DNA from: Bacillota bacterium | Lineage (GTDB): Bacteria > Bacillota > DTU065 | Length of the DNA stretch: 64,000 nt | Reading direction: 5' to 3' | Assembly (NCBI GenBank): GCA_028708605.1 | Contig: JAQVYS010000001.1 | Coordinates: 10,928 to 74,927 of the forward strand | Part shown: positions 1-58,168 of the stretch, piece after piece | Layout: each line of letters begins with the position of its first letter | Numbering within the stretch: position 1 is the stretch's first letter | The notes under the pieces: model-generated | The model's input: only the letters and a program-made list of their open reading frames with translations | Told to the model about the DNA's origin: nothing | The model's database searches: none | Position numbers and translations under genes: made by a program

Positions 1-251
1 TTACACTTTATACCTTAGGTGAATTTGGTGATAAGACTCAAATAACCTGCATTATTCTAGCTAGCCAAAACGGAAGCTTCATCGGTACTTTTTTAGGTGC
101 CGTTTTGGCGATGATACTTGCGAATTTAATCAGTCTTGATCTTGGAAGATTTGTGAGCACACAACTCTCTACTAAAACTATTCGCATCATAGCTGCTGTT
201 ATGTATATTAGCTTTGGTATATTTAGCCTATTGGAGTTAATTAGGCATTAG
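1..251 (+). CDS. Partial CDS, 3' end only. C-terminal half of a UPF0016/GDT1 (TMEM165-like) family membrane protein, a putative Ca2+/Mn2+:H+ antiporter.
   Basis: Frame-3 translation ends LLELIRH* with the stop at 249-251. It contains the E-x-G-D-K-T signature (EFGDKTQ) in a hydrophobic segment. The ORF is open to the window edge. Confidence 0.5.
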   Translation, partial: TLYTLGEFGDKTQITCIILASQNGSFIGTFLGAVLAMILANLISLDLGRFVSTQLSTKTIRIIAAVMYISFGIFSLLELIRH

Positions 252-357
252 ATAGATCAAAAAATAGAACTCACTAAAAAAGGCTCGTCTAAAAGGGCGA
301 CCCCCAAAAGTTAGAACAAAAGTCTAACAGATTGGAGGTCACTCATAGCGGCCTTTT

Positions 358-2214: not shown

Positions 2215-2388
2215 ACTAAAGTACCATTACACTAACAACATTGATTATTTCTACCATTTGGGAGATTTAACCTGCCGCTTGTAATTTAATTATATTTTGC
2301 GAACATTATAGCAACTGTTTTTCTTGTTTTAAAATGGTAATATAGATTGCATATTTTTATAAAGGAGGAAGGAATTCCTCCTTTTTTT

Positions 2389-5300: not shown

Positions 5301-5406
5301 TTTCATAGATACTTGTAGTTCTTCGCATTTTGGGTAGTGGTGTAATATCTAAAAAAGCTTGTCTGCGAAACTCTTCAAATCTTCGCTTGATAACATTTAA
5401 GCGCAT
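2389..5406 (-). CDS. GH38 family alpha-mannosidase.
   Basis: 1005 aa. Motifs LIPQSHIDLAWLWP and GGMWVEPDCNMPSGEA match the GH38 metal-binding and catalytic regions. A long C-terminal beta-rich region is typical of bacterial GH38 enzymes. Confidence 0.85.
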   Translation of the reverse strand: MRLNVIKRRFEEFRRQAFLDITPLPKMRRTTSIYESPGVYKDQKESSDITIGEVWAKPTETAFLSFNGDFWQEDHWFDISLGSEACLFVDGVPYAGLDENHRLIPIPKGVHEYKIEAFNKSDTPKVLLRAHVIFVNKDLDLLTNLALEAVKLAEKSDPIIANAFEEVFTKILVSFSSASDFDGAVKEALATLDTKLRKYEHNKLPGKLVLIPQSHIDLAWLWPEKETVRKISRTFSTALRLGELYDEFIYHQSQPQLFSHAKTYYPKLYTEIKKAVRSGKFKLVGGMWVEPDCNMPSGEAFVRQLLYGKKFFKEEFGCVPTVEWLPDVFGFSPSLPQLFVDSGTKAFMTIKTGWNDTNKMPDCVFNWRGIDGTSIPVFIPKALNEDVTAPDVIQAMENSKRTTILPVVAHLIGYGDGGGGVTIEQMNKGRLLSKLPALPEVEFGDIDSYVQDNIIGKPIKHTWDGELYLELHRGTTTSQARNKKWNRKLEFKVRDVEILSAFSHAIGSEYPKTEIEEAWKVILKNQMHDILPGSSIREVYEKSEKDYLEVDRDLNKLKDKVLEDLAKNIEVVKNDNTMDNIDLDVKKRFVVFNTVSFARKTLIKIAGLPKNASFIDHKGKVLLSQRLKDGNTLVEVDLPEMGYTTIDMVINRKSQVKPSSFTVSEAEFDNGLVSVSFGEFGNVTEIKDLEIDEVVIKNSKHHLQFFDDRPLVWDAWEIDADYAEVSFEPEKLISFKLKENGPICTSFEASWKVNQSTITQEIALYQKSKRVDFKTKVDWQEKHVLLKTIFDTKIRSRYATFDVAFGKYQRPTFQNTTWERAQYEVSAHKWADLSDGSHGVSLLNDCKYGYNVGDQTLGLSLLRAPTYPDKDADNGSHEFTYSVLLHEDVSCQKTIKEAYDLNLESLVKEIPTSKANGIRPLPKKHSFIELKSQGVFLDTIKLAEKSNDYIFRFFESLGRREVLKVNSGLKLIDETDLLENSKNKEGTNMIFGPYKVKTFIGRLDL

Positions 5407-5470
5407 TTTTTTGCCCCTTTCATGCTGAGGCCTTTGATCGAAGTTTAGCTATCTGGCTAAAGGCCAATTG

Positions 5471-5968
5471 TTAAATTGCAGGAGTTATTAATAGAGTAAT
5501 ATCTGTTTTATAGATGCTACCCTCTGCTAATGCCATATCGCTTGGGAAAGAGAGAACCTGTTGATATTTCAAATCATAAACATCCTCGGCTCCTGATATT
5601 TCCTTTTGCTCTGCAAGAACCATCGAATTCTCCAAAGTCAGCCAATTGACTCCTCCGTCGATACTGACTTTGAGAGCTTCCTTCAAACATGCGTCGCCGT
5701 AAACACCCGAGGATGTTACAAATTCTTTGAGATAGATGTTCTCTGTATGGAGTTCTATTCTATAAGCAATATTTGAACTCACTTTTAACGCCATAGTTGG
5801 CGTCTCATTCGCACCAACAGAGAGTTTGCCAAAATATAGCTCTGTATCTGGCCAACTCACCTGAAGCATAGGTTCGATCTGCGCCATCACCTGCTGACTA
5901 AATGACTCAGCCTGTACACCTACAACAACACACAACAAAACTACCAACAACAAACACCTTTTTGACAT
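5471..5968 (-). CDS. Small secreted protein of unknown function. It is the third gene of the secreted operon that starts at 9929.
   Basis: 165 aa. N-terminal signal peptide MSKRCLLLVVLLCVVVGVQA. The body looks beta-rich and ends with alternating hydrophobic residues. Only a 53-nt gap separates it from the upstream 1059-aa gene. Confidence 0.5.
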   Translation of the reverse strand: MSKRCLLLVVLLCVVVGVQAESFSQQVMAQIEPMLQVSWPDTELYFGKLSVGANETPTMALKVSSNIAYRIELHTENIYLKEFVTSSGVYGDACLKEALKVSIDGGVNWLTLENSMVLAEQKEISGAEDVYDLKYQQVLSFPSDMALAEGSIYKTDITLLITPAI

Positions 5969-6021
5969 CTAACAACTCATCCTTTCTAGAGATAAATGCC
6001 GGTTTTGATTTCCACTGGATC

Positions 6022-9000
6022 CTACTTACTACTTTTCCCAAGCGGAATTAAATAGGTAAGATAGATCCCAGTGTCTTGTTCGCTAAGTCGCGTCTCTAGT
6101 TGAAAGTTGTCAGTCTTGAATCTGTAGAAACCTTGTAACCGGAAATTGTCTTTCAAACCTAAATGATATATCCCTTCTACTCCAAGTTGGCTCCATTTAG
6201 AGAGAGCAACATCCAATTCTGCTGCTGCAATTACTACATCGGTTTCAAGATTACCTGTAACAGCCAGTTTTATTGCTGTTTTAGAAAGTGGTAGATGGTA
6301 TTCGGTTTTTATATCATCATCGTTAACGGCAACAAATAACAAACTGTTTTTTGGAAGAACTGTCACCCCAAGTGTCTTTTTTAAATTGGCTTTCTCATTA
6401 CATAAAGAGATCTTAGTCCAAACCGACTTCGTATCATAAACTAGTTCGAGAAGGGAGAATTCAGGACTTATGTGCTCCCATTCGGCACTTACAGTTAAAG
6501 GAACCTTGTTATGAGCAAGGCTTACGGCAATCTTAGGTTTTCCCTCCCTAGGATTTCTCCAAACCCCTTCTACGTATCCGGAAAACCCTAAGATTTTATA
6601 CATCATCCTCGTCGAAAAAGTATCTATCTTCTTACCATTAAATCCTTCCCTACTTGCACTGAAAACAAGATTTTTAGGCCACTTTATTGACCCTGAATAG
6701 AAAAAGTATTCACTATTAAAATTGGTAAAGTCACCTTTTTCCATCGTGAGCTTCTGTTTTATCATTGCTCGTACCAGACGGTTTTCAAAATCAAAGGTAA
6801 ACTCGCCTCGGTTTGAGTTTTGCCCCTTGCTCACCAATATATAAAGATTGCTGTCCCAAGTGCCATCATAATCTAACTGGTAACTAAGGCTAGTTTCTTT
6901 AGCGTTAAAAAGTCGCACCTTATGGTTTGTTGTTAGAGTTCTAAGCAGAGCTGTAGCATCTTGACTGTACCTTCCCAAACTCCCCTTTAGACTCAAATTA
7001 CGGTACTTTAGATTGCCCATAAGTCCCTGATCTTCTAAATGCCGATAAAGATAAATACCATTTTCCTTTTCCTTAAATCCTATGTGCCCTCCACCAAAAA
7101 ACTTGTCGCTTTTTTGACCAGTTTCGCAAAGATAGGAGACTATTAGATAGTTATTTAACCCTAATTGATCTTCTTGCACTAAAGGCCTTTTCAGTTTAAC
7201 TGATTTTTTATCGACATAAAAATCCAGGCTATAGGTTTTAATAACCTGATTATAGCTGTTTCTTGATTCTACAAAAACCCTTACACTACCCTCTTTTGGT
7301 AGCGAGGTTAGGACAAAAGGCCCCGTTGTGCCATCAGCTAAAAACTCATCTTCTTTTTTTGTCTCAAGATAAAAGCCACCAGTGAGTTTGCACTGCAGAC
7401 CATCTTCAGGAGCAAGATCGAGCTCTGCACCTACCAAAGCTATAGAGGCGTAGGTTTCTCTAAGAGGCGAAGCAGAATAAACTGTACCTGCTCCGATTTT
7501 GAAATCGCCAACTTCATAACTAAACTGCCAGGGAGTTTTGTCTAAAATCGAGCTTTTAGTCGCCCATGTGGGGTAAGGGGTATAAGAATAGCCTTTAGGT
7601 AAAATATACGGATAGATAAATGCTAGCTTAAGCTTGTCTGTATCATAAAAACCTTTGACTCCAAAGTCTAGCTCGCCTGTAGCAGCAAGGTTTGCTTTAA
7701 ATTCCAAAAGTCCAAACTTTTTATTTCTACCACCTTGCAATTTAATGCGCTCTGAATACTTTGAAACGTTGAGAATATGCGGCTGATTACCTATCAAAAG
7801 GCCATAGCTGTCAGGCTCTAACTGTAAACTAAAGAAATTTTCGTCTGGGTCTATAAACGACCCATCTGCTAAATAGAAGCCTTCTGATGCTTCGCCAATT
7901 AAAATTCCTGGTTCGCTAAAAAGCCCTTGTGTCACTTTTAAGATGCAGGTTTTTTCTATTTCAATAGGCGTATCATCTTTTGTGTAGGCACTAACCCTTA
8001 TTTTAATTGGATAGGTGCCCTCTTTTACCGAAGGAAGCACTACAAGATCTGCATCTATCTCTATTTCTTCTTTGCTCTCTAATACCTCTTTAAAACTGCT
8101 TTTCCTGACGGTTTGCCCATTTTCAGACCACACTACACCTTCAGGCAGTGTCATTTCTATCCTAATATCCTTAATGTTTCCAACAGATAGATTACATAAA
8201 TCAAGAGAAAGCGTGCCTCGGCTACCTTCTTTTATCGTCTCCGCAGAGATAGAAGCTTCTACCTTTAAGCCATCTATTGGGTTTAAGAAGATATCTCTGT
8301 TTATTACCTCTCCTGCCAGGACATTTACTCTTTCGCTAGCCTTGTGGCCATTTTGAGTACCAGCACATATACTATAAGATCCTTCTTGTAGCTGCACAGA
8401 GAAACTTTCCCCCGCAGCCCCAGCTTTCCGAGAAATCAGCTCGCCTACGTCATTGTAAATTTCGATAAATGGCTGATCATTCTTAGCTATGTTTCTAATA
8501 TTACCTTGTAAAACTCCCCATTTTGACATATCAACTAGCGTAAAAGAGCCTTTTGTTACAACGCTTTCTTTGCCCGTGACCTCATACCTGTACTCTCCAC
8601 TTGGCCAATTAGTACCATCTGCATATTTGGTATCTACACTGATCTCTCTACAATCATTAACAGCCTTATGAAAGAGGATTTCATCACCTTTATATATCTT
8701 GATATCAGCTTCTTTAAGCTTTTCGTTTGCAAAGATAATCCTAGCAACATCTCCTGGCTTAACGTCTTTAGGATTGCAAAACGAAGTGTAAAGACTGCCA
8801 GAATTTAGCATATACATAATTTCTGTTTCATAATTCTCAGCTACAAGCTTATCATCCCAATAAGGATCAAAACGGTACTCTAATGTCAAAGACGTAGGCC
8901 CGCTTCCAAAGTAAAGACACTGACTATACTCTTGGAGCTCGAGCCAGTTGCCATTATTTACTCGTATACTAATCCTCTCTGGTGGAAGAAAAATCTCATT

Positions 9001-46471: not shown

Positions 46472-47686
46472 TTACTTATCTAAACCAAAAACAGCATGAA
46501 GAGTCTGCACAGCCTTTTCAACTAACTCACAAGAGATTACTGTGGAGATACTAATGTCAGAGGTACTAATCATCTCAATATTGATACCATTTTCAGCTAA
46601 TGACTCAAACATTTTTGCTGCAACACCTGGATTGGTGAGCATACCTGTTCCTACAATAGATATCTTTGCTTTATTATCATCACGCTCAACAAGCCCAGCG
46701 GACAACTCACCCATCATGGAAGTAGCCACTTCTTCAGCCTTTAGAGCATCATCTTTACTAACAGTAAAAGAGATATCTGCCAAACCTTCTTTACTAGCAC
46801 TTTGAACAATCATATCAACATTTACCTCAGCTGCTGCTAGCTTTGTGAAAATTAGTGCAGCTACACCAGGTTTATCAGCGACTCTAGCAATAGTTACCTT
46901 AGAAATCTTATTGTTGTGGGCTACACCTACAACGATCCTACCTTGCTCCAAGTTCTCCCCTCCTTTAACAACTGTGCCTGGGTTTTCATTAAAACTGGAA
47001 CGTACACGAATAGGTACATTATATTTTTTCGCTAATTCTACGGCTCTAAGGTGCAACACTTTGGCTCCAAGACTAGCCATCTCTAGCATCTCATCATAAG
47101 AGATCTCATCATGCTTTTTTGCATTTGGTACAAGTCTTGGATCTGCAGTATATACGCCATCGACGTCAGTATAAATCTCACAAACGTCAGCTTGTAGAGC
47201 AGCTGCAAGTGCTACCGCAGAGGTATCTGAACCACCACGGCCCAAAGTAGTGATATTATTTTTTTCATCCACACCTTGGAATCCTGCAACAATAACGACC
47301 TGACCTTTTGCTAATTCCTCTTTTATTCTCTTTGAAGAAATCTCTGTGATTTTAGCTTTTTGAAAAGCTCCATCAGTTTTAATTCCTACCTGGGCGGCTG
47401 TTAAAGAGATAGCTTTGCCACCTAAATCATCTATTGCCATTGCTAAAAGAGCAATAGAGATCTGTTCTCCTGTGGCAAGTAACATGTCTACTTCACGAGC
47501 GCATGGATTTTTAGCAACACCTTTTGCTAAAGCTAAGAGTTCATCGGTCTTTCCTGCTGGGGCAGAGACTACGATGACCATCTGATGTCCTTTGTTTTGA
47601 GTATATAAGATTCTCTCCGCGACGTTGCGGACTCTAAGAGCATCAGCTACAGATGTTCCTCCGTATTTTTGAACAATTATTCCCAA
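46472..47686 (-). CDS. lysC: Aspartate kinase.
   Basis: 404 aa. N-terminal KYGGTSV, the amino-acid-kinase fold and two C-terminal ACT domains. Confidence 0.9.
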   Translation of the reverse strand: MGIIVQKYGGTSVADALRVRNVAERILYTQNKGHQMVIVVSAPAGKTDELLALAKGVAKNPCAREVDMLLATGEQISIALLAMAIDDLGGKAISLTAAQVGIKTDGAFQKAKITEISSKRIKEELAKGQVVIVAGFQGVDEKNNITTLGRGGSDTSAVALAAALQADVCEIYTDVDGVYTADPRLVPNAKKHDEISYDEMLEMASLGAKVLHLRAVELAKKYNVPIRVRSSFNENPGTVVKGGENLEQGRIVVGVAHNNKISKVTIARVADKPGVAALIFTKLAAAEVNVDMIVQSASKEGLADISFTVSKDDALKAEEVATSMMGELSAGLVERDDNKAKISIVGTGMLTNPGVAAKMFESLAENGINIEMISTSDISISTVISCELVEKAVQTLHAVFGLDK

Positions 47687-47778
47687 GACAGGCCACCTCC
47701 CTCAAAACATTGTAAGTTTTTCTATAATTATTAATACTATCCTGCTTGATCTGTTGTGTATACACGAAATGCAAGTAA

Positions 47779-48732
47779 TTACATTTCGTGTATTTTTTTG
47801 AGTAGTACTTTTTTAATTGTATCAGAAACAAAACTTGCTTCAAGTGAATTTATTAACAAATTTTTTCTCGTAGTAGCTTTGTCTAAAAGATCGTTAGCAA
47901 TTTCATATTCGCCCTGTAACGTGATCTGAGAGGTTTGAGGGTCATCGTCATTAACTGTAACCTTAAGACCCATATTGACCATTTGCTTTATAGGGTGTTC
48001 TTTAATACTTGCAACAGCCCCAGTGTGTATATTACTTGTGGGGCAAACTTCAAAGACTATACCTCTTTCTTTTGCAATCTCTACTACCTCTTTGTCTTCT
48101 ATTACCCTGATGCCATGACCTATACGGCTAGCGTTTAGTTCCAGTATCGCCTCTTTGACGTTTCCTGGTTCACCAGCTTCCCCCGCATGTGCAGTGATAC
48201 CAAGGCCGGCCTCTTTTGCTATTTCAAAAGATCTCTTATGTGGCAAAGCCTTGAAGTTTGCTTCGTCTCCAGCTATGTCAAAGCCAACAACACCTAGATC
48301 CTTATATTTACTGGCAAGCTTTGCAAGCCTAATTGATACTGCAGGATCTTCATGCCTGAGGGTAGAGATGATTGCCCGAGTAACAACTCCAAAGTTCCGT
48401 TCACCTTCGTTAAAGCCCTCTAATACAGCTTCTACAGTATCTTCTAGTTGCATATCCCCTGATGTATGCAAAGTAGGTCCGAAGCGTACTTCTAAATAAA
48501 GACAGTTGTTTTGACTTGCGCTTTCAACGATCTCATAGGCAACTCTTTTAAGATTTTGGCGTCTTTGCGTTAAAGGATAGCCACAGGCAATCTTGTCAAG
48601 GAACTCCTTTAGGGAGGTACAGTTTTTGTTTACAGTAAGATCCGCTTTGATATCGTTTCCCATTAACTCGCTAAAAGTTTCAGGTCTAACGCTTCCTTCT
48701 AAATGAGTGTGCAAACTAACTGTATAATCCAT
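47779..48732 (-). CDS. add: Adenosine deaminase.
   Basis: 317 aa. SLHTHLEGS (the HxHxxG zinc motif) and HAGE....GHG family motifs. RBS AAGGAG is upstream. Confidence 0.85.
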   Translation of the reverse strand: MDYTVSLHTHLEGSVRPETFSELMGNDIKADLTVNKNCTSLKEFLDKIACGYPLTQRRQNLKRVAYEIVESASQNNCLYLEVRFGPTLHTSGDMQLEDTVEAVLEGFNEGERNFGVVTRAIISTLRHEDPAVSIRLAKLASKYKDLGVVGFDIAGDEANFKALPHKRSFEIAKEAGLGITAHAGEAGEPGNVKEAILELNASRIGHGIRVIEDKEVVEIAKERGIVFEVCPTSNIHTGAVASIKEHPIKQMVNMGLKVTVNDDDPQTSQITLQGEYEIANDLLDKATTRKNLLINSLEASFVSDTIKKVLLKKIHEM

Positions 48733-48787
48733 AGTTTTTTCTCCTTAAATAAGTGATTGACATAGCGCTTATGTCATAATAAATATC

Positions 48788-49420
48788 TTACTTTGGGGTG
48801 CCTTCCTGCAAAACTGCTTTTTCGTCTAAAACACTAATCCGAAACTCACAGTATTGATCGCCGTTTGCACAACATTTTTCTTCCACCACTTCTACCTTTT
48901 TACCGAGCTTTGCCTCAAAAGCACCTGCTGCTGTACCTGATTCGTAGACACAGATCTTTAGGCCAATGTTTGGAAGACCATAACAATCTGCGCATTCGTA
49001 GGTCCGGTAGATGGCCTCATTGTCTGTAACTTTTACAATCTCCTGCCGGCCATACTTGTGCTCTGGGGCTATACGAACATTGCTTTCAAGCAGTTCTTTT
49101 AAATTTGTGCCAGTAAGACTTGGGGCTATATATGCTGCACCAATTACCTTACCAATTTGATAACTAAGAGGTAGAAGCTCTGGAAAAAGCATAAAGGTAA
49201 AGGTTTGTCTATCTCTCATATAGAGAATCTGCATTTCGTTGCCGAATGTAGGACGGATCTGCCGGCCTTCAGCTAAAGCCTTATAGTGATCGTTTATGGC
49301 TGCAAAAAGTTCTTTTGCTTTAGAGGCTTCTTCCACAAGATCACGATACGCCCCAGAGGTCAAGCCTGCTGATGCCTTGATTAATGTGTGGAGTCTTGTG
49401 TAATCAGACATAAGTATCAC
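48788..49420 (-). CDS. V4R-domain protein (predicted small-molecule-binding), embedded in the nucleoside uptake operon.
   Basis: 210 aa. The C-terminal CVYESGTAAGAFEAKLGKK...CCANGDQYCEFRI carries the V4R conserved Cys pattern. Its start overlaps the upstream permease gene by 17 nt. Confidence 0.6.
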   Translation of the reverse strand: MILMSDYTRLHTLIKASAGLTSGAYRDLVEEASKAKELFAAINDHYKALAEGRQIRPTFGNEMQILYMRDRQTFTFMLFPELLPLSYQIGKVIGAAYIAPSLTGTNLKELLESNVRIAPEHKYGRQEIVKVTDNEAIYRTYECADCYGLPNIGLKICVYESGTAAGAFEAKLGKKVEVVEEKCCANGDQYCEFRISVLDEKAVLQEGTPK

Positions 49421-50357
49421 TCCGATCGAAATGTTTGCCTACAGCCTTAGGTGGTGACACTTTACGGACAAAACCACCTAATACTAAAATTGTCACAATA
49501 TACGGTAACATTTGTACAAACTGTGTTGGCCAGCCGTAAAGTTGCAAATTCATCTCTATAGCACTCGTAAGTCCGAACAAAAGTGACGCCAGCACAACCC
49601 CTACAGGATTCCAGTTACCTAAAATAGTGGCTGCAACTGCTATATAGCCTCTGCCACTTACCATATTTCGCGAAAACATACTCAGCTCCCCAAGCGAAAG
49701 ACATGCTCCACCTAGACCTGCAAACATCCCACCTAAAACTACTGCTAAGTACTTGTAAACAAAAACCTGTATGCCTAGACTATCTACGGCTGCAGGATTT
49801 TCGCCAATTGCTCTTAGCCTTAGACCCCATTTTGTTCTGTAAAAAACAAACCAACTAATAATCATAATTGCAATCATCATATAGAAGAAGGGAGATTGTC
49901 TAAAGAAAATTTCACCGATTACAGGTATATCACTAAGACCTGGTATATAAACAGGGTATATTCCAGCTACGTCAGGAGACTTACCTCTGTTTCCCCAAAT
50001 GGCAACAAGCAAAACTGCAGTAATGCCTTGTCCCAGAAGGTTTAAAGCTACACCTGAAACCACATGATTAGCTTTAAACTTGAGGGTAAAGATAGCTAGA
50101 ATTAGAGCCATTACTCCGCCTGCAATAAGCGAGAAAACTACTCCCGTCCAGGGGTTACCGGTAAGAAATGACCCTAAAACGCCAAAGAAGGCTCCAACTA
50201 ACATCAGTCCTTCTAAACCTAAATTAACAACTCCAGCCCTTTCACTATAAACTGCTCCAAAGGCAGCAAGCCCGAGAGGAGTCGCCATTCGTAACATACT
50301 TGATATAAGCCCGATGATTATATATGCCGCGTCACTTGTCAGCCACTGTTCTAGCAT
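49404..50357 (-). CDS. Nucleoside ABC transporter permease (NupC / BMP-system permease 2).
   Basis: 317 aa. Polytopic, with the ABC-2/branched-chain-type permease pattern. Its start overlaps the upstream permease gene. Confidence 0.8.
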   Translation of the reverse strand: MLEQWLTSDAAYIIIGLISSMLRMATPLGLAAFGAVYSERAGVVNLGLEGLMLVGAFFGVLGSFLTGNPWTGVVFSLIAGGVMALILAIFTLKFKANHVVSGVALNLLGQGITAVLLVAIWGNRGKSPDVAGIYPVYIPGLSDIPVIGEIFFRQSPFFYMMIAIMIISWFVFYRTKWGLRLRAIGENPAAVDSLGIQVFVYKYLAVVLGGMFAGLGGACLSLGELSMFSRNMVSGRGYIAVAATILGNWNPVGVVLASLLFGLTSAIEMNLQLYGWPTQFVQMLPYIVTILVLGGFVRKVSPPKAVGKHFDRSDTYV

Positions 50358-51381
50358 GCTTTACCCCTCCCTTCTTCCAATTTATTTTTAAGGTTTTAAG
50401 TAACTCAGGAGCTGAAACAAACAGAATAATTGCTGCTTGGATGATAATTACAAAGTCAACAGGTACGTTTGTTGTTCGATCTAAGATCATGCCACCTGCT
50501 CTCATTAAGCCAAATAAAAGTGCTGAAAACAAAACACCAAGCGGGCTATTGCCTCCTAAAATAGCTACAGCAACTCCGTCAAAACCATACCCTGGAGAAA
50601 ATCCGTCAATATAACGACCATGTAATCCTAAAATCTGACCTGCTCCGCCAAGACCAGCTAAAGCCCCTGAAAGTAAGAGTGTTAAGCCAATCATCTGAGG
50701 AACATTAATACCAGCAGCAGCAGCTGCTCTAGGATTAGATCCTACTACTTTAAGATCGTATCCAAGTTTGGTGTGGTAAAGTAAAAACCAAACCACCAAA
50801 ACAAAAAATAACCCTACAAATAGCGCACTTGAAAACTGTGCCCCTTGGCCTAGTCTAGAAAGTGCTGCACTCGAATGAATCGTTGGTGTTTGAGGCACAG
50901 GGCCAGGTGCTTTAAAGGTGTAGTTTGCAAGATAAGCACAGAGTAAAGTACCGATACTATTTAGCATAATTGTAATGATAACTTCGTTGGCATCAGCTTT
51001 AATCTTTAGCCACGCTGCAATTAAAGCCCAAAGACCACCAAAGAGTGCGCCACCACAAAGAGCAATAATCACATGTAGAAGATGGGGAAGTGGTGGCAAG
51101 TAAGCGGCCAAAACAGCCGCTGCCATTGCTCCTAAATAGAGCTGGCCTTCAGCGCCAATATTAAAGACCCCACAATTATTAGCAAGCGCTACAGCAAGAC
51201 CTGTAAAGATTAGGGGCGTCGCTTGCACTAAAGTCTGTGCAATCCCATCCCAGCTACTTACAGCTCCCCATATCATTGCCTTATATGCTGCAAGAGGTGA
51301 GTATCCACTAAAATACAAGACAAGACCTGCTGCAAATAAGGCTAAGACTAACCTACAAGCTAGATTAAGAACCCTCCTCAT
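50332..51381 (-). CDS. Nucleoside ABC transporter permease (NupB / BMP-system permease 1).
   Basis: 349 aa polytopic permease. Its start overlaps the ATPase stop. Confidence 0.8.
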   Translation of the reverse strand: MRRVLNLACRLVLALFAAGLVLYFSGYSPLAAYKAMIWGAVSSWDGIAQTLVQATPLIFTGLAVALANNCGVFNIGAEGQLYLGAMAAAVLAAYLPPLPHLLHVIIALCGGALFGGLWALIAAWLKIKADANEVIITIMLNSIGTLLCAYLANYTFKAPGPVPQTPTIHSSAALSRLGQGAQFSSALFVGLFFVLVVWFLLYHTKLGYDLKVVGSNPRAAAAAGINVPQMIGLTLLLSGALAGLGGAGQILGLHGRYIDGFSPGYGFDGVAVAILGGNSPLGVLFSALLFGLMRAGGMILDRTTNVPVDFVIIIQAAIILFVSAPELLKTLKINWKKGGVKHARTVADK

Positions 51382-52892
51382 AGTCCAACCACCTTGCTTT
51401 CATCCTTGTTAAAGGCGCCTGCCATATACATACCCAGCTCTTTTTCTGTGGTGGAAAGAGCTTGCGTTTCATAGACTAGAGAGCCTTCGTAAAGGACAAC
51501 TATCCGGTCACTAAGTTGCCTAATCTCGTCTAAATCAGCAGAGACCAATAAGATAGCCTTGCCTCTCTTTGCCATGTTCAAAATCTCTTTATGAAGATAC
51601 TCAATCGCTCCAACATCAACACCACGAGTCGGATGGGCGATAACTAATACATCCGAATCATGGTAAAATACTCTTCCAAGCAGAAGCTTTTGAGCATTTC
51701 CGCCAGACAGAGATGCTGTTTTTGCTGCAATTCCTTCGGTCTTTACTTGATAAGTATCAAGGATCTCTTTGCTGACTGCATTGATTTTTTTAAAATCTAA
51801 AACACCTCTGTTTTGATAGTTGCTTTGATAGCCTAATATCGCATTTTGCCAGTTACAAAAACTTGGAACTATTCCTCTATCATTGCGATCTTCAGGAATA
51901 AAACCTATTCCTTCTCTAATCCTTTGTTTTACAGAGTGCTTAGTGATATCTTCACCTTTTAAATATATAGAGCCCATATCCGGCGTAACAAGTCCTGTTA
52001 GAGCTTCTAAAAGCTCAGTCTGACCATTACCTTCTACACCAGCAACACCTAATATCTCACCCTTTTTCAAAGTAAAGTTAATGTTTTTAAGAGCATCTTG
52101 TAGGCAGAGATCCTTAGCCTCTAATACCACCGGACCTTTAACAGTAGGCTCTTTTACAGCTTGGAGGATTACGCTTCTTCCTACCATCATCTGCGCAAGA
52201 ATCTCAGGAGTTGCTTTTTTGGTACTGATTGTACCCATATTTTTGCCATTTCGAAGCACTGTAACATTGTCTGCAATTGCTAATGTTTCTTTTAGCTTAT
52301 GGGTGATGATAATAATGGTTTTACCTTCATTTTTCAACGCCTTTAGCATTTCAAAAAGCTCTGCAACTTCAGGAGGAGTAAGAACCGCGGTTGGTTCATC
52401 TAAAATGATGGTCTCTGCCCCACGGTAGAGCGCCTTTATGATTTCAACACGCTGCTTCTCTCCGACAGGTATATCCTCTACTAACATATCTGGGCGCACC
52501 TTTAGCCCTAACTTATGACTTAACTCCATCACTTTTTCCCTAGACTTTTTATAAGAAAGAATGCCCCACTTAGTTTCTTCCTTGCCAAGAATAATGTTTT
52601 CCATAACACTGAGGTTATCAACGAGCATAAAATGTTGAAAAACCATACTTATTCCTGCATTAATAGCTTCTTTGGGAGAGTTAATCTGGCAGAGAGTACC
52701 GTTTAAGCAGATCTCACCTTCATCCTTTGGATGAATGCCATAAAGAATCTTCATTAAGGTAGTTTTACCTGCACCGTTTTCGCCCAGAAGCGAGTGGATT
52801 TCACCCTTATTTACAATCAACTCAGCATTATCTAGAGCTGTTAGTGAGCCGAATCTCTTGACAATATTACTCATTCTTAGAGCTTCAGACAT
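51378..52892 (-). CDS. Nucleoside ABC transporter ATP-binding protein with tandem duplicated ATPase domains (NupA-like).
   Basis: 504 aa. Two Walker A motifs (GENGAGKTT and GVEGNGQTE) and two ABC signatures. Confidence 0.85.
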   Translation of the reverse strand: MSEALRMSNIVKRFGSLTALDNAELIVNKGEIHSLLGENGAGKTTLMKILYGIHPKDEGEICLNGTLCQINSPKEAINAGISMVFQHFMLVDNLSVMENIILGKEETKWGILSYKKSREKVMELSHKLGLKVRPDMLVEDIPVGEKQRVEIIKALYRGAETIILDEPTAVLTPPEVAELFEMLKALKNEGKTIIIITHKLKETLAIADNVTVLRNGKNMGTISTKKATPEILAQMMVGRSVILQAVKEPTVKGPVVLEAKDLCLQDALKNINFTLKKGEILGVAGVEGNGQTELLEALTGLVTPDMGSIYLKGEDITKHSVKQRIREGIGFIPEDRNDRGIVPSFCNWQNAILGYQSNYQNRGVLDFKKINAVSKEILDTYQVKTEGIAAKTASLSGGNAQKLLLGRVFYHDSDVLVIAHPTRGVDVGAIEYLHKEILNMAKRGKAILLVSADLDEIRQLSDRIVVLYEGSLVYETQALSTTEKELGMYMAGAFNKDESKVVGL

Positions 52893-52959
52893 TTTTCCAG
52901 CCTCCTAATCCAAGAAGAATCGCTGGCAAAAAACCAGCGATTCTTTAGCCCCTAGTCTA

Positions 52960-53991
52960 TTATTTAGCGTTTTTCAAAAACGCATCTACTTCTTCAAGAG
53001 TGCTTGGAACAACAATCTCACCTGAGATGATCTTTGCACGGATCTCCTCTATCTTTAGAATGTATTCTTCTGGAATCGTGAAGCTGTTTTCGGTTGTATC
53101 ATAACCCATAGCCTCTTCCTTTAGGCCATAACAGAAGTCTCCACCTTCCCAAGTTCCATTCATTGCTGAATTAATTTGGTCTACGACTACATTTCCAAGT
53201 CTTCTTACAGCTGAAAAGAGGATATTGTTAGGCTCGATATAATTTTGGTTTGAGTCAGCACCTATTGCATATTTGTTGACTTGTCTTGCAGCTTTAAACA
53301 CTCCTAGGCCTGATCCACCTGCAGCTTGGAAAACAATGTCTACGCCTCTTTGGTACATTAAAAGAGCTTGTTCCTTTGCTTTAGCAGGGTCAGACCAGCC
53401 ACCTACATACGCAACGCTCACATCAGTTTTGGGTTCTACATATTTAGCACCAGCTGTATATCCAGCAACAAAAGTCTTAATAAGAGGGATTTCCATACCA
53501 CCGACTATACCAATTCTGTTTTGTGCGTTCATTTGTCTGAAGTTTCTTGTGTCTGTTGTAAGCTGAGCTGCGAGTGCACCAACTAAGAAAGCCTTCTCAT
53601 AATCTTTAAAAACGATGGAAGCTACATTAGGAACACTAATAGCCGCATCAATTAAAACGAATTTTTGATTTGGATATTCTCCAGCAACTTTTTTAAGGGA
53701 CTCTGCTTGGTCAAAACCAAGGCAGACAATCAAGTCATAAATGCCACTTTGAGCAAATGCTCTTTCATGGCCTTCAAACTCTGCAATAGACGATGGCTCT
53801 ACATAGTCCAACGTGATGTCAAGCTCTTCTTTAGCTCTTGTCAAACCTTCAAAAACGGAGTCATTAAAGGAACGATCTCCAAGGCCACCTGTTGCGAAAA
53901 CAACACCTACATTAAACTCTGCTGCTGCAAACACACCAACTAGACTCAGTGTTAGAATAACGAGAAATAGCTTCCTAAATGTTTTTGTCAT
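52960..53991 (-). CDS. BMP-family (basic membrane protein / PnrA-like) nucleoside-binding lipoprotein, the substrate-binding component.
   Basis: 343 aa. Signal peptide followed by a PBP type-I fold with BMP family motifs (VDIVFQAAGGSG). Confidence 0.85.
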   Translation of the reverse strand: MTKTFRKLFLVILTLSLVGVFAAAEFNVGVVFATGGLGDRSFNDSVFEGLTRAKEELDITLDYVEPSSIAEFEGHERAFAQSGIYDLIVCLGFDQAESLKKVAGEYPNQKFVLIDAAISVPNVASIVFKDYEKAFLVGALAAQLTTDTRNFRQMNAQNRIGIVGGMEIPLIKTFVAGYTAGAKYVEPKTDVSVAYVGGWSDPAKAKEQALLMYQRGVDIVFQAAGGSGLGVFKAARQVNKYAIGADSNQNYIEPNNILFSAVRRLGNVVVDQINSAMNGTWEGGDFCYGLKEEAMGYDTTENSFTIPEEYILKIEEIRAKIISGEIVVPSTLEEVDAFLKNAK

Positions 53992-54003: not shown

Positions 54004-54861
54004 CTATTTAGCCAAATTTTTTTGAACTTTAGCATCGACGTCAGTCCGGTAATCTAGACACTTACACTCATTTGGACCACAATTTGCAAGAGTGCGTAGC
54101 ATTAAACGACCAATCTTAGGTGCTGAATCCTTGTAAAGATCAAAGATCTCGTTACCATGCCAATTGGTTATCATGCCTTCTGCATAATTAGAAATAAGAT
54201 AAATACTAGCAATGTGAGCGCCAATTAATCTGGCATAGTAAACCTCTGGTGAGAGTGTGATGCCAGCAATATCTGCATGAGCGTTGTGTAGCATTTTAAC
54301 CTCTGCTGCGCTCTCAAAACGCGGACCTTGACTTGTAGCGTATACGCCACGATTAAAAACTCTAGGAAATTCCTTTTGTGCTTCTTGGTACAGCGTATCT
54401 CTTAGAGTTGGGCAGAAAGGATCTAACATTCTTACAATTTTATTTGGAATCAGTGCAACCGTTGGCTCTTTTCTCATGTCAATATAATCTGAAGGAATAA
54501 TTAAATCACCTGGATCAAGCAGGGTGTTTATTCCACCGCCACTGCCTTCTACAACAATGTTTTTCACGCCAGCTTGCATAAAAACCCAAAAGATTTGTTC
54601 TGGTCCATTTGCTGGCGCATCAGCTGAATGCCAGCCATGAAATGCTGCAGAAAGAACTAGCCTGTCTTTGTGATCTGCTGTTATCTCTTTATCTAGTTTT
54701 AAAAGCTTTAGAGGAACAGTTTCACCGTAAGGGGTTTGAAAAACTAAATTGTCTTCTAATACCTCTACACCTTTTAGGCCAATGTCCAACGGGAAATCTC
54801 CAGCCCAGGTCCCTGAACCACCAATGTACGCGTATTTAACTGCGGGAATTGTTTGAGTCAC
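54004..54861 (-). CDS. Purine nucleoside phosphorylase of the MTAP/PNP (PNP_UDP_1) family.
   Basis: Motifs YIGGSG, GPRFESAAEVKM and DIAGITLSPEVYYA align to MTAP/PNP-I. The likely start is the GTG at 54861, 8 nt after GAGGAGG (VTQTIPA...). The ORF track extension to 55038 runs across the riboswitch terminator and is rejected. Confidence 0.75.
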   Translation of the reverse strand: MTQTIPAVKYAYIGGSGTWAGDFPLDIGLKGVEVLEDNLVFQTPYGETVPLKLLKLDKEITADHKDRLVLSAAFHGWHSADAPANGPEQIFWVFMQAGVKNIVVEGSGGGINTLLDPGDLIIPSDYIDMRKEPTVALIPNKIVRMLDPFCPTLRDTLYQEAQKEFPRVFNRGVYATSQGPRFESAAEVKMLHNAHADIAGITLSPEVYYARLIGAHIASIYLISNYAEGMITNWHGNEIFDLYKDSAPKIGRLMLRTLANCGPNECKCLDYRTDVDAKVQKNLAK

Positions 54862-54875
54862 AAAAATAACCTCCT

Positions 54876-54929
54876 CAATAAAATAAAGCCCGGGTGGCCA
54901 GGTTACGGCGAAACCTGACCATCCGGGCT
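54876..54929 (-). terminator. Intrinsic terminator forming the expression platform of the purine riboswitch. Its U-tract abuts the RBS of the PNP gene.
   Basis: Minus-strand RNA AGCCCGGAUGGUCAGGUUUCGCCGUAACCUGGCCACCCGGGCU, then UUUAUUUUAUU, then GAGGAGG. Confidence 0.6.
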
Positions 54930-55037
54930 TTTCTCCCCAAGGTGTAGCATAATTAATGCCTGTACCGCTTGGACCAAACCCTAAAGAAGCCATGCATAAA
55001 CAATGGCTTTTTAAGTGGAACCCTAGGTACACTTCCA

Positions 55038-55104
55038 TCCGTAGTCAGAGAGTTTACGGCTCCCCGGTAGAAACGCCCAGTCCATATTACTAGGCATATA
55101 CGAA
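55038..55104 (-). ncRNA. Purine riboswitch aptamer, guanine/hypoxanthine class (C at the discriminator position).
   Basis: Minus-strand RNA UUCGUA-UAUG-CCUAG-UAAUAUGGA-CUGGG-CGUUUCUACC-GGGGAG-CCGUAAA-CUCUCU-GAC-UACGGA. It has the conserved L2 (AUAUGG), J2/3 (GUUUCUACC), L3 (CCGUAAA) and J3/1 (GAC) elements, and paired P1, P2 and P3 stems. Confidence 0.8.
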
Positions 55105-55143
55105 AATATTCGTTTATTAATTCAATATCAATCTGACATCTTA

Positions 55144-55172
55144 ATCCTACCAAGGCAGTTAAACATTGTCAA
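55144..55172 (-). promoter_or_regulatory. Sigma-70-type promoter driving the riboswitch-controlled operon.
   Basis: Minus strand TTGACA, a 17-nt spacer, then TAGGAT. The predicted TSS is about 30 nt upstream of aptamer P1. Confidence 0.4.
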
Positions 55173-55401: not shown

Positions 55402-55911
55402 CTAAACCAATCTATCTAACATCATAACAACATCGGCACTTAAAAGAGTATAATCGTTAATATTAAATCTGTTTCCATCAACATCAATAACAAGAAGTCT
55501 ACCTTTTCCTAGATTAATGATATTTTGTCTTGGATCTTTAACAACAAAACTCCTTGGTCCTCTGTCAGTTTCAGCATCAAAGTACCAAAGACCAAACTCT
55601 TCAGTAAGCTTATTCACGCCATGAATATTCGGCATATAGTATCGCTTGTAGAGATAGTCCTTGAGGATTTCTTTTGAATTGAGTTCTAACTCATTTATGG
55701 ACTTTATTAACCCAAGTTCTTTGTTTTTAGAGTCCTTGACCCAAATATACCGTTCTGGCATTTTTAGAGGAAAGCAACACCCTGCATCTGCTTTAATTAC
55801 ACAGTACTTATCTTTATAGGTAAAACGAAGTATCCCTGAAGTAGAATAACTAAAGATCACATCCTGAGGGTCTAAATATTGTAGATCACCGAATTCAGGC
55901 AAGTTGCTCAT
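55402..55911 (-). CDS. Hypothetical protein, probably DUF1854-like, translationally coupled to the upstream ABC exporter.
   Basis: 169 aa. Its start overlaps the 3' end of the ABC gene by 17 nt. No enzymatic motif was recognised. Confidence 0.4.
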   Translation of the reverse strand: MSNLPEFGDLQYLDPQDVIFSYSTSGILRFTYKDKYCVIKADAGCCFPLKMPERYIWVKDSKNKELGLIKSINELELNSKEILKDYLYKRYYMPNIHGVNKLTEEFGLWYFDAETDRGPRSFVVKDPRQNIINLGKGRLLVIDVDGNRFNINDYTLLSADVVMMLDRLV

Positions 55912-58168
55912 TTACATTTGCCACCTCCCCATTTTTGCCACTGTCAATCTCTTGAGCCATCACAAGTTCGTAATAATAGCCCTTTCTCTTTATTAATTCA
56001 CTAGGGGAGCCAGCTTCAACAATTTTACCTTCTTCAATAACTATTAGCTTGTCGGCATTTCGCAAGGTACTAAGTCTATGCGCAATTGCAATTGTTGTTC
56101 TGTTAACTACAAGCCTATCAATTGCTTGTTGAATCTTTTGTTCTGTCTCTGTATCGACAGATGATGTTGCCTCATCTAGAATCAAGATCCGTGGGTCATG
56201 TAAAATCGCGCGAGCTATAGCGATTCTTTGTCTTTCTCCTCCAGAAAGCCTTGTTCCCCTTTCGCCTACAAAAGTATCGTAGCCGTTTGGAAAAGTTGTT
56301 ATATAATCGTGGGCATTAGCAATCTTTGCTGCTCTAATAATCTCTTCCATAGTCGCATCTGTTTTAGCATAGGCTATATTATCTGCAATTGTACCGTTAA
56401 AAAGGAACGTATCCTGCAAGACCATACCAACCTGTCCACGAATGTCTTGCTGTGCGATTTCTTTGATGTTGTTCCCATCTATGGTAATTTCACCTTCATT
56501 GGGATCATAGAAACGACAGACTAAGTTAATTATAGTAGACTTACCTGCACCGGAGTGTCCCACTACTCCGAGCATCTCCCCTTCTTCTATCTTAAAACTG
56601 ATATTTTGCAAAACCGGTTCATGCTCATCATAACCAAAGGTCACGTTATTAAATTCCACTTCACCTTTGATGTGAGGCATCCGAATGGGATTTGGAAGGT
56701 CAACTACATCAGGCTGAGCATCTAAAATTTCAAAGACTCGTTCTGCACTAGTTAAGGATCTAGTTAACCAATCTGTAATCCTACTTAAAAACTGCAGTGG
56801 TCCGTAAAAACGCCAGATATAATTCATGAAGGTTACTAACTGTCCAACTGTTGCAACTCCTAACAAAACGTCACGGCCACCGATTAGATATACAAACAAA
56901 CTACCAAGAGTTAGCACAAAAGAAAGCCACGGATATAACGTTGCCCAGGTCTGTTCTGCTTGTACAGAAGCTTGATATAGGTCTCTGCTTCTGTTATCAA
57001 ATCTCTCTATCTCTTTATCTTCTTGAGCGAAAGCTTTAATAACCCTCACTCCAGATAAAGAATCGTTTAAAACAGCTGTCATTTTGGAGTTACGATGCCA
57101 AAAGCTAGAAAAGAGTTTCCAGATATACTTCCAAAACTTATAAGATAGTAAAACCGCAATAGGCGCGGGAATAATCACTAAAAATGCTAGTTTTGCGTTT
57201 ATGCTAAACAATATAGCCCCTATTCCAATAAGGAGTAACACCTGAACTAAGAAATATTGCAAACCTTCAATAAGAAAGTTGTTGAGTCTGTTGACGTCAT
57301 GAACTAGCCTTGACATGATTGAACCCGTTTGCCTTTTGTCGTAATAACTCAAGGAAAGCCTTTGCAACGCTTCGTAGGATTTTTTGCGAAGCTCATAGAC
57401 TAGGCTAGCTGAAAGCCATGCAGCCATACGCCCTCTAACTACAGCGATTAAAGTCGACAAAAACTGAGCTGCAAATAAGCCAATCACAACCCAAATTAGC
57501 ATCTGCCAAGCGTTGAGTGGTCTTTCCCCAAGTACTTTGTCGATTAAAATCACACCACTTAAATAAGGTGGTACAAGATCCAAAGCCGTTCCTAAAAGCA
57601 TCATCACAGTTAGCAAAATCAGCTTACCTTTAAACGGCCAAGCATAAGCCAAAAGACGTTTTAAAATTGCCCCTTTGTCGATACAAGCTGGACAGGACTC
57701 TGACCATTCTGGGATAATTCTGCCACACTTTTGGCAATAACTCTTACTAGTATCTTCAATGTGATGGAATGCAAAGTCTGATCTCTCATTTTCATCTAGT
57801 TTTATCAGCTTATTTAAAGCCCTTGCTACATAGTTAAAGTCTCTAGAGTAAGAGTTACTGTATTGTAACAATAAGACCATGTCATTTTTAGTTGTAGCCT
57901 GCAAAACACCGCAACCAACCAAATTTTGATGAGATATATCTAGGACCTCATCCATTGATACTGAAATCCTTAAGCTATACTCCTCTGGGCCTTTTTGCTT
58001 GTAGACCTCAATAAAGTTGGTTGTAGCAATAAGCCATAGGTCACCGTATAAGCCCTTTTCGTCGATGTCTGAATATTGAGTAAGAATAACCTTGCCTTTC
58101 TCTGCTTCTAGATTTTCTTTAAAAGCTTCTGAAAGACTACGTGCCGTAAGCACCCATACTACCTCCAA
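55895..58168 (-). CDS. Fused ABC exporter (transmembrane domain plus nucleotide-binding domain, type I exporter fold) with an unusual N-terminal cytoplasmic domain of about 170 aa that ends in a CxxC...CxxC zinc ribbon.
   Basis: 757 aa. The N-domain ends YCQKCGRIIPEWSESCPACIDKG. Six TM helices follow. Walker A GHSGAGKST, signature LSGGERQR and Walker B ILILDEATS. Confidence 0.8.
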   Translation of the reverse strand: MEVVWVLTARSLSEAFKENLEAEKGKVILTQYSDIDEKGLYGDLWLIATTNFIEVYKQKGPEEYSLRISVSMDEVLDISHQNLVGCGVLQATTKNDMVLLLQYSNSYSRDFNYVARALNKLIKLDENERSDFAFHHIEDTSKSYCQKCGRIIPEWSESCPACIDKGAILKRLLAYAWPFKGKLILLTVMMLLGTALDLVPPYLSGVILIDKVLGERPLNAWQMLIWVVIGLFAAQFLSTLIAVVRGRMAAWLSASLVYELRKKSYEALQRLSLSYYDKRQTGSIMSRLVHDVNRLNNFLIEGLQYFLVQVLLLIGIGAILFSINAKLAFLVIIPAPIAVLLSYKFWKYIWKLFSSFWHRNSKMTAVLNDSLSGVRVIKAFAQEDKEIERFDNRSRDLYQASVQAEQTWATLYPWLSFVLTLGSLFVYLIGGRDVLLGVATVGQLVTFMNYIWRFYGPLQFLSRITDWLTRSLTSAERVFEILDAQPDVVDLPNPIRMPHIKGEVEFNNVTFGYDEHEPVLQNISFKIEEGEMLGVVGHSGAGKSTIINLVCRFYDPNEGEITIDGNNIKEIAQQDIRGQVGMVLQDTFLFNGTIADNIAYAKTDATMEEIIRAAKIANAHDYITTFPNGYDTFVGERGTRLSGGERQRIAIARAILHDPRILILDEATSSVDTETEQKIQQAIDRLVVNRTTIAIAHRLSTLRNADKLIVIEEGKIVEAGSPSELIKRKGYYYELVMAQEIDSGKNGEVANVNEQLA

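Follow-up and report, generated by a model that had tools for sequence, protein, structure and literature searches.

The leader described here lies on the minus strand in the intergenic region 55401-54862 of a 64-kb window, the whole stretch of DNA that was analysed (64,000 nucleotides of contig JAQVYS010000001.1 of a Bacillota bacterium), ahead of an operon whose first gene encodes a nucleoside phosphorylase of the MTAP/PNP family. In our study, this leader was found to be very probably a tandem guanine-PRPP (phosphoribosyl pyrophosphate) riboswitch, in which a guanine aptamer is followed by a PRPP aptamer (ykkC subtype 2b) and by one common terminator. The element belongs to the known guanine-PRPP class; its gene context and its host lineage are new. 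The initial annotation had described an expression platform of unusual length, with an antiterminator more elaborate than usual. That description did not hold, and the spacer of about 100 nt was found to be a complete ykkC 2b aptamer, with matches to RF00442 (below its gathering score), a tandem profile and the covariance model R1. The same annotation had added, as a hedge, that there was possibly a second regulatory input, and the PRPP-type aptamer in the spacer answers to this. The positions of all features are collected in Table 1.

Two aptamers in the leader

The first aptamer was matched by the covariance model RF00167 (Purine) at positions 55022-55123 of the minus strand, over the full model (1-102), with 84.0 bits, where the gathering score is 37 bits (E 1.2e-13 over the whole window). 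No family except RF00167 reached its gathering score in the Rfam scan of the 64-kb window. The guanine-type aptamer with P1-P3 and the conserved elements, as first proposed, is therefore confirmed by the model score and by the presence of C74 at 55044. The L2 and L3 loops contained AAUAUGG and CCGUAAA, respectively, J3/1 was composed of AC (2 nt), and the discriminator C74 was carried by the GAC element. The binding-pocket nucleotides U22, U47, U51, and C74 were all in place (UAUAU, GUUUCUAC, and GAC). Junction insertions are the criteria that separate the xanthine-II and guanine-II variants (PMC9295807), and none of these insertions were found in the guanine aptamer of the window. By its sequence, the first aptamer is of the classical guanine/hypoxanthine type. 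The P1 helix of this aptamer, in which two of the pairs are G-U and one position is a U-U mismatch, had a duplex energy of -4.4 kcal/mol (RNAduplex). Upstream of the aptamer, the promoter-like site matched 10 of the 12 consensus positions and contained the TG of an extended -10 element, and we infer a transcription start near 55137. The whole leader was more stable than shuffled controls (z = -5.1).

The second aptamer was found in the spacer behind the guanine aptamer. In a permissive Rfam search of this region only, RF00442 (guanidine-I) matched positions 54918-55037 over its full length with 52.6 bits (E 9e-9), which is below its gathering score of 63 bits. A full-length ykkC match that stays below the threshold and lies directly behind a guanine aptamer is the signature of ykkC subtype 2b (PRPP). 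Of the 257 PRPP aptamers that Sherlock et al. (2018; PMC5912903) described, 127 follow a guanine aptamer directly. A profile hidden Markov model (HMM), made for nhmmer from the 18 published guanine-PRPP tandem sequences in Supplementary file 3 of PMC5912903, matched the window with 127 bits (E 1.4e-37, HMM positions 5-194). The covariance model R1 was built from the PRPP halves of 14 of these 18 tandems, without the window sequence, and was annotated with P0, P1, P1a, P2, P3, and the C75-G96 pair. R1 matched positions 54904-55044 over its full length (1-146) with 97.8 bits (E of about 5e-22). This was the single R1 match in the 64-kb window, and no match was found in 872 kb of other loci. The ykkC scaffold was complete, with P1, P1a, P2, and P3 and with the CUAGGGUUCC, GGUCC-AG, ACACC, and GGGA-AAAAGCCC elements. 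By sequence and model scores, both aptamers are complete.

Four variants of the leader were found ahead of the same operon, in the window and in the loci L001, L081, and L084, all from related uncultured Bacillota (the clade). The extra spacer hairpin GCCAUUGUUUAUGCAUGGC that had been noted earlier is indeed present at 55007-54989, but it is merely the P1b tip of the PRPP aptamer and not a part of a longer platform; this hairpin differed in sequence and length in L001, L081, and L084. These results bear on the reading that was preferred in the initial annotation, namely a guanine riboswitch on its own, whose platform is long but otherwise ordinary, in which the spacer hairpins are only antiterminator or spacer and there is no second ligand. 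In favour of this reading, there is a genuine guanine aptamer and a genuine terminator, and Rfam gives nothing else above a gathering score. The spacer, however, gave the full-length R1 match and the RF00442 match described above, the ligand-contacting nucleotides were kept, and a mere spacer would not keep such contacts across four variants while the P1b tip varies freely. We consider a single guanine riboswitch the least probable of the explanations weighed here.

Shared terminator and predicted P0 pairing

The leader contained one intrinsic terminator, which would be shared by the two aptamers. The GC-rich terminator placed about 110 nt downstream in the initial annotation was recovered as a 19-bp stem of -33.8 kcal/mol that starts 104 nt past the end of the guanine P1, and a simple terminator scan recovered the inner part of this stem. 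Its U-tract runs into the GAGGAGG ribosome-binding site of the phosphorylase gene (PF01048 match), as had been read earlier and as was read again from the sequence. No terminator was found in the stretch that separates the aptamers, and the guanine aptamer is without a platform of its own. In the terminator, the 5' half (54931-54912) is made up of AAAG from the 3' part of the P3 loop, the P3 3' strand CCC, G95, G96, the tail through G104 and G105, and two U nucleotides, and the 3' half corresponds to 54904-54885. Since its 5' half is built from P3 and the tail of the PRPP aptamer, the terminator and the folded PRPP aptamer cannot coexist. The gap between the two P1 stems was 4 nt (GAAG, 55035-55032), or 6 nt when the terminal U-G and U-U of the guanine P1 are left out. 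In the published tandems this gap is typically 5-7 nt, and a single terminator is shared (PMC5912903).

The P0 helix was predicted to contain 10 bp with one bulged A and to have an energy of -9.5 kcal/mol, in comparison with -4.4 kcal/mol for the guanine P1 duplex (RNAduplex). A mutual exclusion of P0 and the guanine P1 has been proposed (PMC6031431), and the complementarity found here suggests that the two helices are mutually exclusive in this leader as well. A like P0 complementarity of 8-10 bp was found in 18 of the 18 published tandems. The length of P0 (10 bp, taking in all of the guanine P1 3' strand) was considered as a novelty and was ruled out, since the published tandems show 8-10 bp alike.

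Constrained folding of the transcript ending at 54904 gave -66.2 kcal/mol for the PRPP fold and -61.4 kcal/mol for the guanine-P1 fold. When the 3' strand of the terminator was present, the terminator folds reached -89 to -93 kcal/mol against -66 kcal/mol, which is more than 20 kcal/mol better. As the terminator folds win once their 3' strand has been made, PRPP could act only during a short phase of transcription. The computed energies support the pattern of a kinetically controlled transcriptional switch.

When the full leader was folded to its minimum free energy, the helix of the terminator was lengthened, and CCUUGG (54937-54942) was paired with UUGAGG of the Shine-Dalgarno region (54873-54878). 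The CCUUGG segment overlaps the conserved ACACC, and a CCU(U)/(A)AGG pairing is also possible in L001, L081, and L084. In these folding models, the pairing with the Shine-Dalgarno region may be an added translational component, or it may be incidental.

Proposed switching

For the guanine-PRPP tandems, Sherlock et al. (2018, PMC5912903) and Knappenberger et al. (2018, PMC6031431) have described a gate of IMPLY type with a shared platform. In the Bacillus megaterium experiments, guanine turned expression off, PRPP turned it on, and PRPP overrode guanine (PMC5912903). If the published class mechanism applies here, the binding of PRPP would lock P0 and P3, the terminator would not be formed, and the operon would be transcribed. 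When guanine or hypoxanthine is bound and PRPP is scarce, the guanine P1 would keep the strand that is needed by P0, and the PRPP aptamer would be destabilised. The terminator would then be formed and transcription would halt ahead of the phosphorylase gene. PRPP would override guanine, which is the IMPLY logic. At a low level of free purine base, or with ample PRPP, the cell would in this way import purine nucleosides and cleave them. Once imported, deaminated, and phosphorolysed, the nucleosides would yield hypoxanthine and other bases, and phosphoribosyltransferases need PRPP to re-use them. Because PRPP is the co-substrate for the salvage of the released bases, low guanine or high PRPP would be a sensible condition for expression.

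Subtype of the second aptamer

The subtypes of ykkC aptamers are distinguished by a few nucleotides. According to the crystal structure study of Knappenberger et al. (2018; PMC6031431), position 49 is an A in the guanidine-I class, whereas the PRPP class and the ppGpp (guanosine tetraphosphate) class have a pyrimidine there; in the window, position 49 was found to be C at 54967 (AAG-C-GG). The same study found that PRPP aptamers have a G96 paired with C75, that ppGpp aptamers have no G96, and that G96A alone results in a 40,000-fold specificity switch. The corresponding pair C54944-G54923 was conserved as C-G in all four clade variants, the window included. The PRPP-contacting residues A5 and G6 (the AG before P1), G48, C77, C78, A103, G104, and G105 were kept. 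The tails were also present, with GGAAG ahead of P1 and AGGUUUCGCCGUA after P3, where the class contains AAG and AGGUUUC..., respectively. Membership in the guanidine-I class (RF00442) was rejected on the score of 52.6 bits against 63 bits and on C instead of A at position 49. Membership in the ppGpp class (2a) was rejected on the G at 54923, which the window shares with every variant of the clade.

Several observations weigh against a tandem guanine-PRPP riboswitch. Position 101, which contacts the alpha-phosphate of PRPP, was U at 54918, whereas a purine was found in 18 of the 18 published sequences; this position is described as weakly conserved, with more than 75% purine (PMC6031431). The nucleotide flanking P3 on its 5' side was G opposite G95, whereas the published sequences examined contain U opposite G or A opposite A. 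The ppGpp (2a) and nucleoside diphosphate (NDP, 2c) classes would be set apart by G96, the tails, and the context of the guanine tandem, and not by model scores. The downstream genes are genes of salvage and uptake (phosphorylase, Bmp ATP-binding cassette (ABC) importer, V4R protein, and adenosine deaminase) and not those of the published context, where the tandem guanine-PRPP riboswitches were linked exclusively to genes of de novo purine synthesis as far as inosine monophosphate (IMP), plus codA (PMC5912903). Finally, the four clade sequences are close relatives, and invariant positions such as P0 carry little weight among them.

Some of these observations would fit a second aptamer that has the fold of the PRPP class and senses another phosphorylated ligand (ppGpp, a nucleoside diphosphate, or a ribose phosphate from the phosphorylase pathway), in which case the gate would integrate guanine and that signal. 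The ligand of ykkC subtype 2 is changed by one or a few substitutions, as in the G96A switch (PMC6031431). The U101-C102 of the clade and the G opposite G95 do not occur in the 18 published sequences, the clade-specific tail GGUCAGGUUUCGCC was not found in the published 2018 alignments, and the gene context is unlike that of the published PRPP riboswitches. The presence of G96 and its partner C75, however, speaks against ppGpp, all the strongly conserved PRPP contacts were kept, and the deviating position 101 is a weakly conserved one. Among the guanidine, ppGpp, and PRPP subtypes, the guanine tandem with overlapping P0 and P1 has been described only for PRPP, and PRPP, as the co-substrate of purine base salvage, suits the operon. 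Another ligand is therefore considered unlikely. It is also a rather improbable suggestion, drawn from the sequence context, that the aptamer of this clade, standing ahead of a ribose-1-phosphate-releasing phosphorylase, has shifted to another phosphorylated ribose compound or nucleotide; if true, the shifted specificity would make a new two-input gate on the guanine-PRPP chassis. For the tandem guanine-PRPP riboswitch, the main residual uncertainty is whether U101 and the G opposite G95 leave the PRPP specificity intact, and a changed ligand carries a small chance.

Relatives and covariation of the leader

In the PRPP half of the four variants, 96 of the 96 base-pair cells were paired (24 of 24 modelled pairs), whereas the controls with a slid register were paired at 31-45%. 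Compensatory changes were found in 4 pairs of P1, P1a, and P2. The terminator pair 54921/54895 also showed a compensatory change, from U-A in the window to C-G in both L001 and L084. The P0 3' strand UUUCGCCGUA was identical in the four clade variants. As P0 is invariant in the clade, its pairing is supported by the published set and not by the four variants.

A decaying relic, in which at least one of the aptamers has lost its switching and control of the operon has passed to something else such as a protein regulator, was considered in the light of these changes. The guanine P1 is weak, with its U-U mismatch, two G-U pairs, and -4.4 kcal/mol, and the element is limited to a small clade, the other 79 phosphorylase loci of the comparison set being without the tandem leader. 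The published tandem NC_009922, however, has a still weaker P1 (-2.7 kcal/mol), and the compensatory changes preserve the helices in four variants. No conserved core position was damaged in either aptamer, and neither the promoter and the ribosome-binding site nor the terminator and its U-tract showed any damage. A relic is thus very unlikely.

The phosphorylase comparison set contained 80 GTDB loci that encode members of the family, and GTDB genomes contain at least 584 relatives. Among the 80 fetched loci, the tandem leader was found only in L001, whose protein is 73% identical to that of the window. The other 79 loci had no match to the tandem HMM or to R1, and thus neither a tandem leader nor a singlet PRPP aptamer was found in them. 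In the upstream regions of L003-L011 and L014, no riboswitch was found at the Rfam gathering level. The additional loci L081-L086 are contigs with the proteins P0003 and P0004, which are 67-69% identical to the phosphorylase of the window; these loci contained the tandem leader and the same operon order. As no leader was found in the remoter homologues, the association is limited to a clade with phosphorylases of at least about 67% identity, and among the loci examined the tandem leader was seen only in this closest clade. A metagenome scan with the clade-specific core recovered three contigs and no new covariation; L087 was identical to the L084 variant, and the other two scored as the window on R1. 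A regular expression for purine-aptamer cores gave only two chance matches in the 80 loci and missed L001 and L002, and it was superseded by Rfam, nhmmer, and the covariance models.

Two of the relatives showed changes in an aptamer. L081 contained UACAACC at 7919-7925, where the other variants contained UACACC, which is a one-base insertion inside the C75-A76-C77 pocket motif; the R1 score of this variant was slightly lower (91.4 bits). In L002 (Neobittarella massiliensis), an aptamer of the purine family was found at 5699-5802 with 62 bits, upstream of a phosphorylase homologue at 6001. Its junctions were altered (cmscan), with a 2-nt insertion in J3/1, A for U at position 48, and CCGGAAA in L3, and no PRPP aptamer was found behind it. 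From these junction changes, the L002 aptamer may be of a guanine-II-like variant class.

The operon and its neighbourhood

The operon content proposed earlier (PNP-like protein, BMP lipoprotein, duplicated ATPase, two permeases, V4R protein, and adenosine deaminase) was recovered by Pfam and NCBIfam matches (Table 1). Behind the phosphorylase gene, the rest of the operon spans 47779-53991 on the minus strand, and the gene order was the same in L081 and L084.

Table 1. Features of the leader and genes of the operon, with positions in the window.
Feature	Position	Strand	Description	Basis
Promoter-like site	55144-55172	-	TTGACA 55172-55167, 17-nt spacer, TG-n-TAGGAT (-10 hexamer 55149-55144)	Consensus scan
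Guanine-type purine aptamer core	55036-55106	-		RF00167 and base-by-base helix check
Guanine P1	55106-55099 with 55043-55036	-	UUUUCGUA with UACGGAUG	Pairs read from sequence
Guanine-aptamer P2	55095-55089 with 55081-55075	-		
J2/3	55074-55067	-	GUUUCUAC, 8 nt	
Guanine-aptamer P3	55066-55060 with 55052-55046	-		
PRPP-type (ykkC subtype 2b) aptamer	54904-55043	-		RF00442, tandem HMM, R1
P0 5' strand	55033-55043	-	UACGG(A)UGGAA; contains the entire guanine P1 3' strand 55043-55036	
P0 3' strand	54904-54913	-	UUUCGCCGUA; spans the terminator loop and neighbouring stem bases in the alternative fold	
PRPP-aptamer P1	55031-55026 with 54966-54961	-		
PRPP-aptamer P1a	55023-55016 with 54977-54971	-		
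P1b tip of PRPP aptamer	55007-54989	-	Variable distal hairpin GCCAUUGUUUAUGCAUGGC	Variable-insert region in RF00442 and R1 alignments
PRPP-aptamer P2	54960-54956 with 54950-54946	-		
PRPP-aptamer ACACC	54945-54941	-	C75 at 54944	
PRPP-aptamer P3	54937-54935 with 54927-54925	-	GGG with CCC	
G96	54923	-		
A103, G104, G105	54916-54914	-		
Shared intrinsic terminator	54885-54931	-	19 bp, one 1x1 mismatch, 7-nt loop, -33.8 kcal/mol	
U-tract	54887-54877	-	UUUAUUUUAUU; abuts GAGGAGG	Read from sequence
Shine-Dalgarno and start codon	54876-54870 and 54861-54859	-	GAGGAGG, 8-nt spacer, GTG	Read from sequence
MTAP/PNP-family nucleoside phosphorylase	54004-54861	-	Divergent, 285 aa, first regulated gene	PF01048 (PNP_UDP_1), 89.7 bits
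Bmp/PnrA-like binding protein	52960-53991	-		Pfam/NCBIfam
ABC ATPase	51378-52892	-	One protein with two ABC_tran domains	Pfam/NCBIfam
Two permeases (BPD_transp_2)	50332-51381 and 49404-50357	-		Pfam/NCBIfam
V4R protein	48788-49420	-	210 aa	Pfam/NCBIfam
Adenosine deaminase	47779-48732	-		Pfam/NCBIfam

The 285-aa product of the phosphorylase gene was found to be the database protein P0001 over its full length, from a "Firmicutes bacterium" metagenome-assembled genome. It scored at most 90 bits on the NCBIfam equivalog models, whose cut-offs are at least 197 bits, and its nearest solved structures were MTAP and PNP enzymes (E 1e-16). Its close relatives are few (74 matches). It is part of a separate and thinly annotated branch of the MTAP/PNP family, often named 'hypothetical', in which two nearly invariant cysteines were found near the C terminus, C266 and C268 (alignment A1). 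The phosphorylase reading frame can also be opened at an in-frame ATG at 55038, which gives a 344-aa open reading frame (54004-55038) that runs through the 3' strand of the guanine P1, the PRPP aptamer, and the terminator. The 344-aa reading frame is an artefact, since homologues have lengths of 285-292 aa and the database copy begins with the GTG at 54861. The same ATG lets gene callers extend the phosphorylase reading frame through the riboswitch and could hide the riboswitch from annotation.

The binding protein resembled two lipoproteins of solved structure, 2fqw (tmpC) and 6shu (Basic membrane protein D), both of which we take to be purine-nucleoside binders. The V4R gene overlaps the end of the permease gene and precedes the adenosine deaminase gene, and its location is conserved in L084-L086; V4R domains are regarded as small-molecule binders. 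The end of the deaminase gene is overlapped by a perfect hairpin of 11 bp (UACACGAAAUG ... CAUUUCGUGUA) at 47750-47795 on the minus strand, with an A-run before it and no U-run after it. No consensus terminator was found between the adenosine deaminase gene and the aspartate kinase gene (46472-47686).

Upstream of the leader, the window contained a gene pair encoding an ABC exporter and a DUF1854 protein (55402-58168, minus strand; cyanophycin-associated family by NCBIfam). In L081 and L084 (positions 200-7400), four genes of the opposite strand were inserted between this pair and the leader, which encode a GH31 glycosidase, two unknown proteins, and a protein of the metallo-beta-lactamase fold.

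Comparison with known systems

The guanidine-I (RF00442) and ppGpp (2a) aptamers share the ykkC scaffold with the second aptamer of the window, including P1, P1a, P1b, P2, P3, and the conserved loop AAAAGCCC. The guanidine-I aptamers contain A49 and are without the P0 tails, whereas the window contained C49 and scored below the RF00442 gathering score. The ppGpp aptamers are without G96, whereas the C75-G96 pair was kept in the window. A standard Rfam scan shows only "Purine" at this site, no separate PRPP family reports it, and the two-input nature is consequently missed.

The singlet guanine riboswitches (xpt-pbuX, pbuG; RF00167) have the same kind of core, the discriminator C74, and an OFF switch through an intrinsic terminator. 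They contain their own antiterminator and terminator right after P1, whereas the guanine aptamer of the window would act through the neighbouring PRPP aptamer. The Bmp-family guanosine importer nupNOPQ (yufN) of Bacillus subtilis is controlled by a singlet guanine riboswitch and protein regulators, and its leader is not known to contain a PRPP aptamer. The likeness to the present operon lies in a purine-sensing leader ahead of a Bmp-type nucleoside ABC importer.

The closest known systems are the tandem guanine-PRPP riboswitches, such as those of Bacillus megaterium codA and Thermoanaerobacter mathranii (PMC5912903; PMC6031431). The order of the aptamers, the gap of a few nucleotides between the P1 stems, the single terminator overlapping P3 and the 3' tail, the predicted competition of P0 with the guanine P1, and the strongly conserved nucleotides are the same. 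The differences were found in the genes, which here encode a phosphorylase, an ABC importer of the Bmp type, and an adenosine deaminase instead of de novo purine enzymes or codA, in UC at positions 101-102 instead of a purine followed by any base, in the G opposite G95, in the uncultured Bacillota host, and in the tail sequence, which is absent from the 2018 alignments. No earlier report of PRPP riboswitches ahead of nucleoside transporters or phosphorylases was found in the literature search. The mechanism is not new and the extension of the known system is modest: the regulon of the guanine-PRPP gate would be extended from de novo synthesis and codA to salvage by nucleoside import, deamination, and phosphorolysis.

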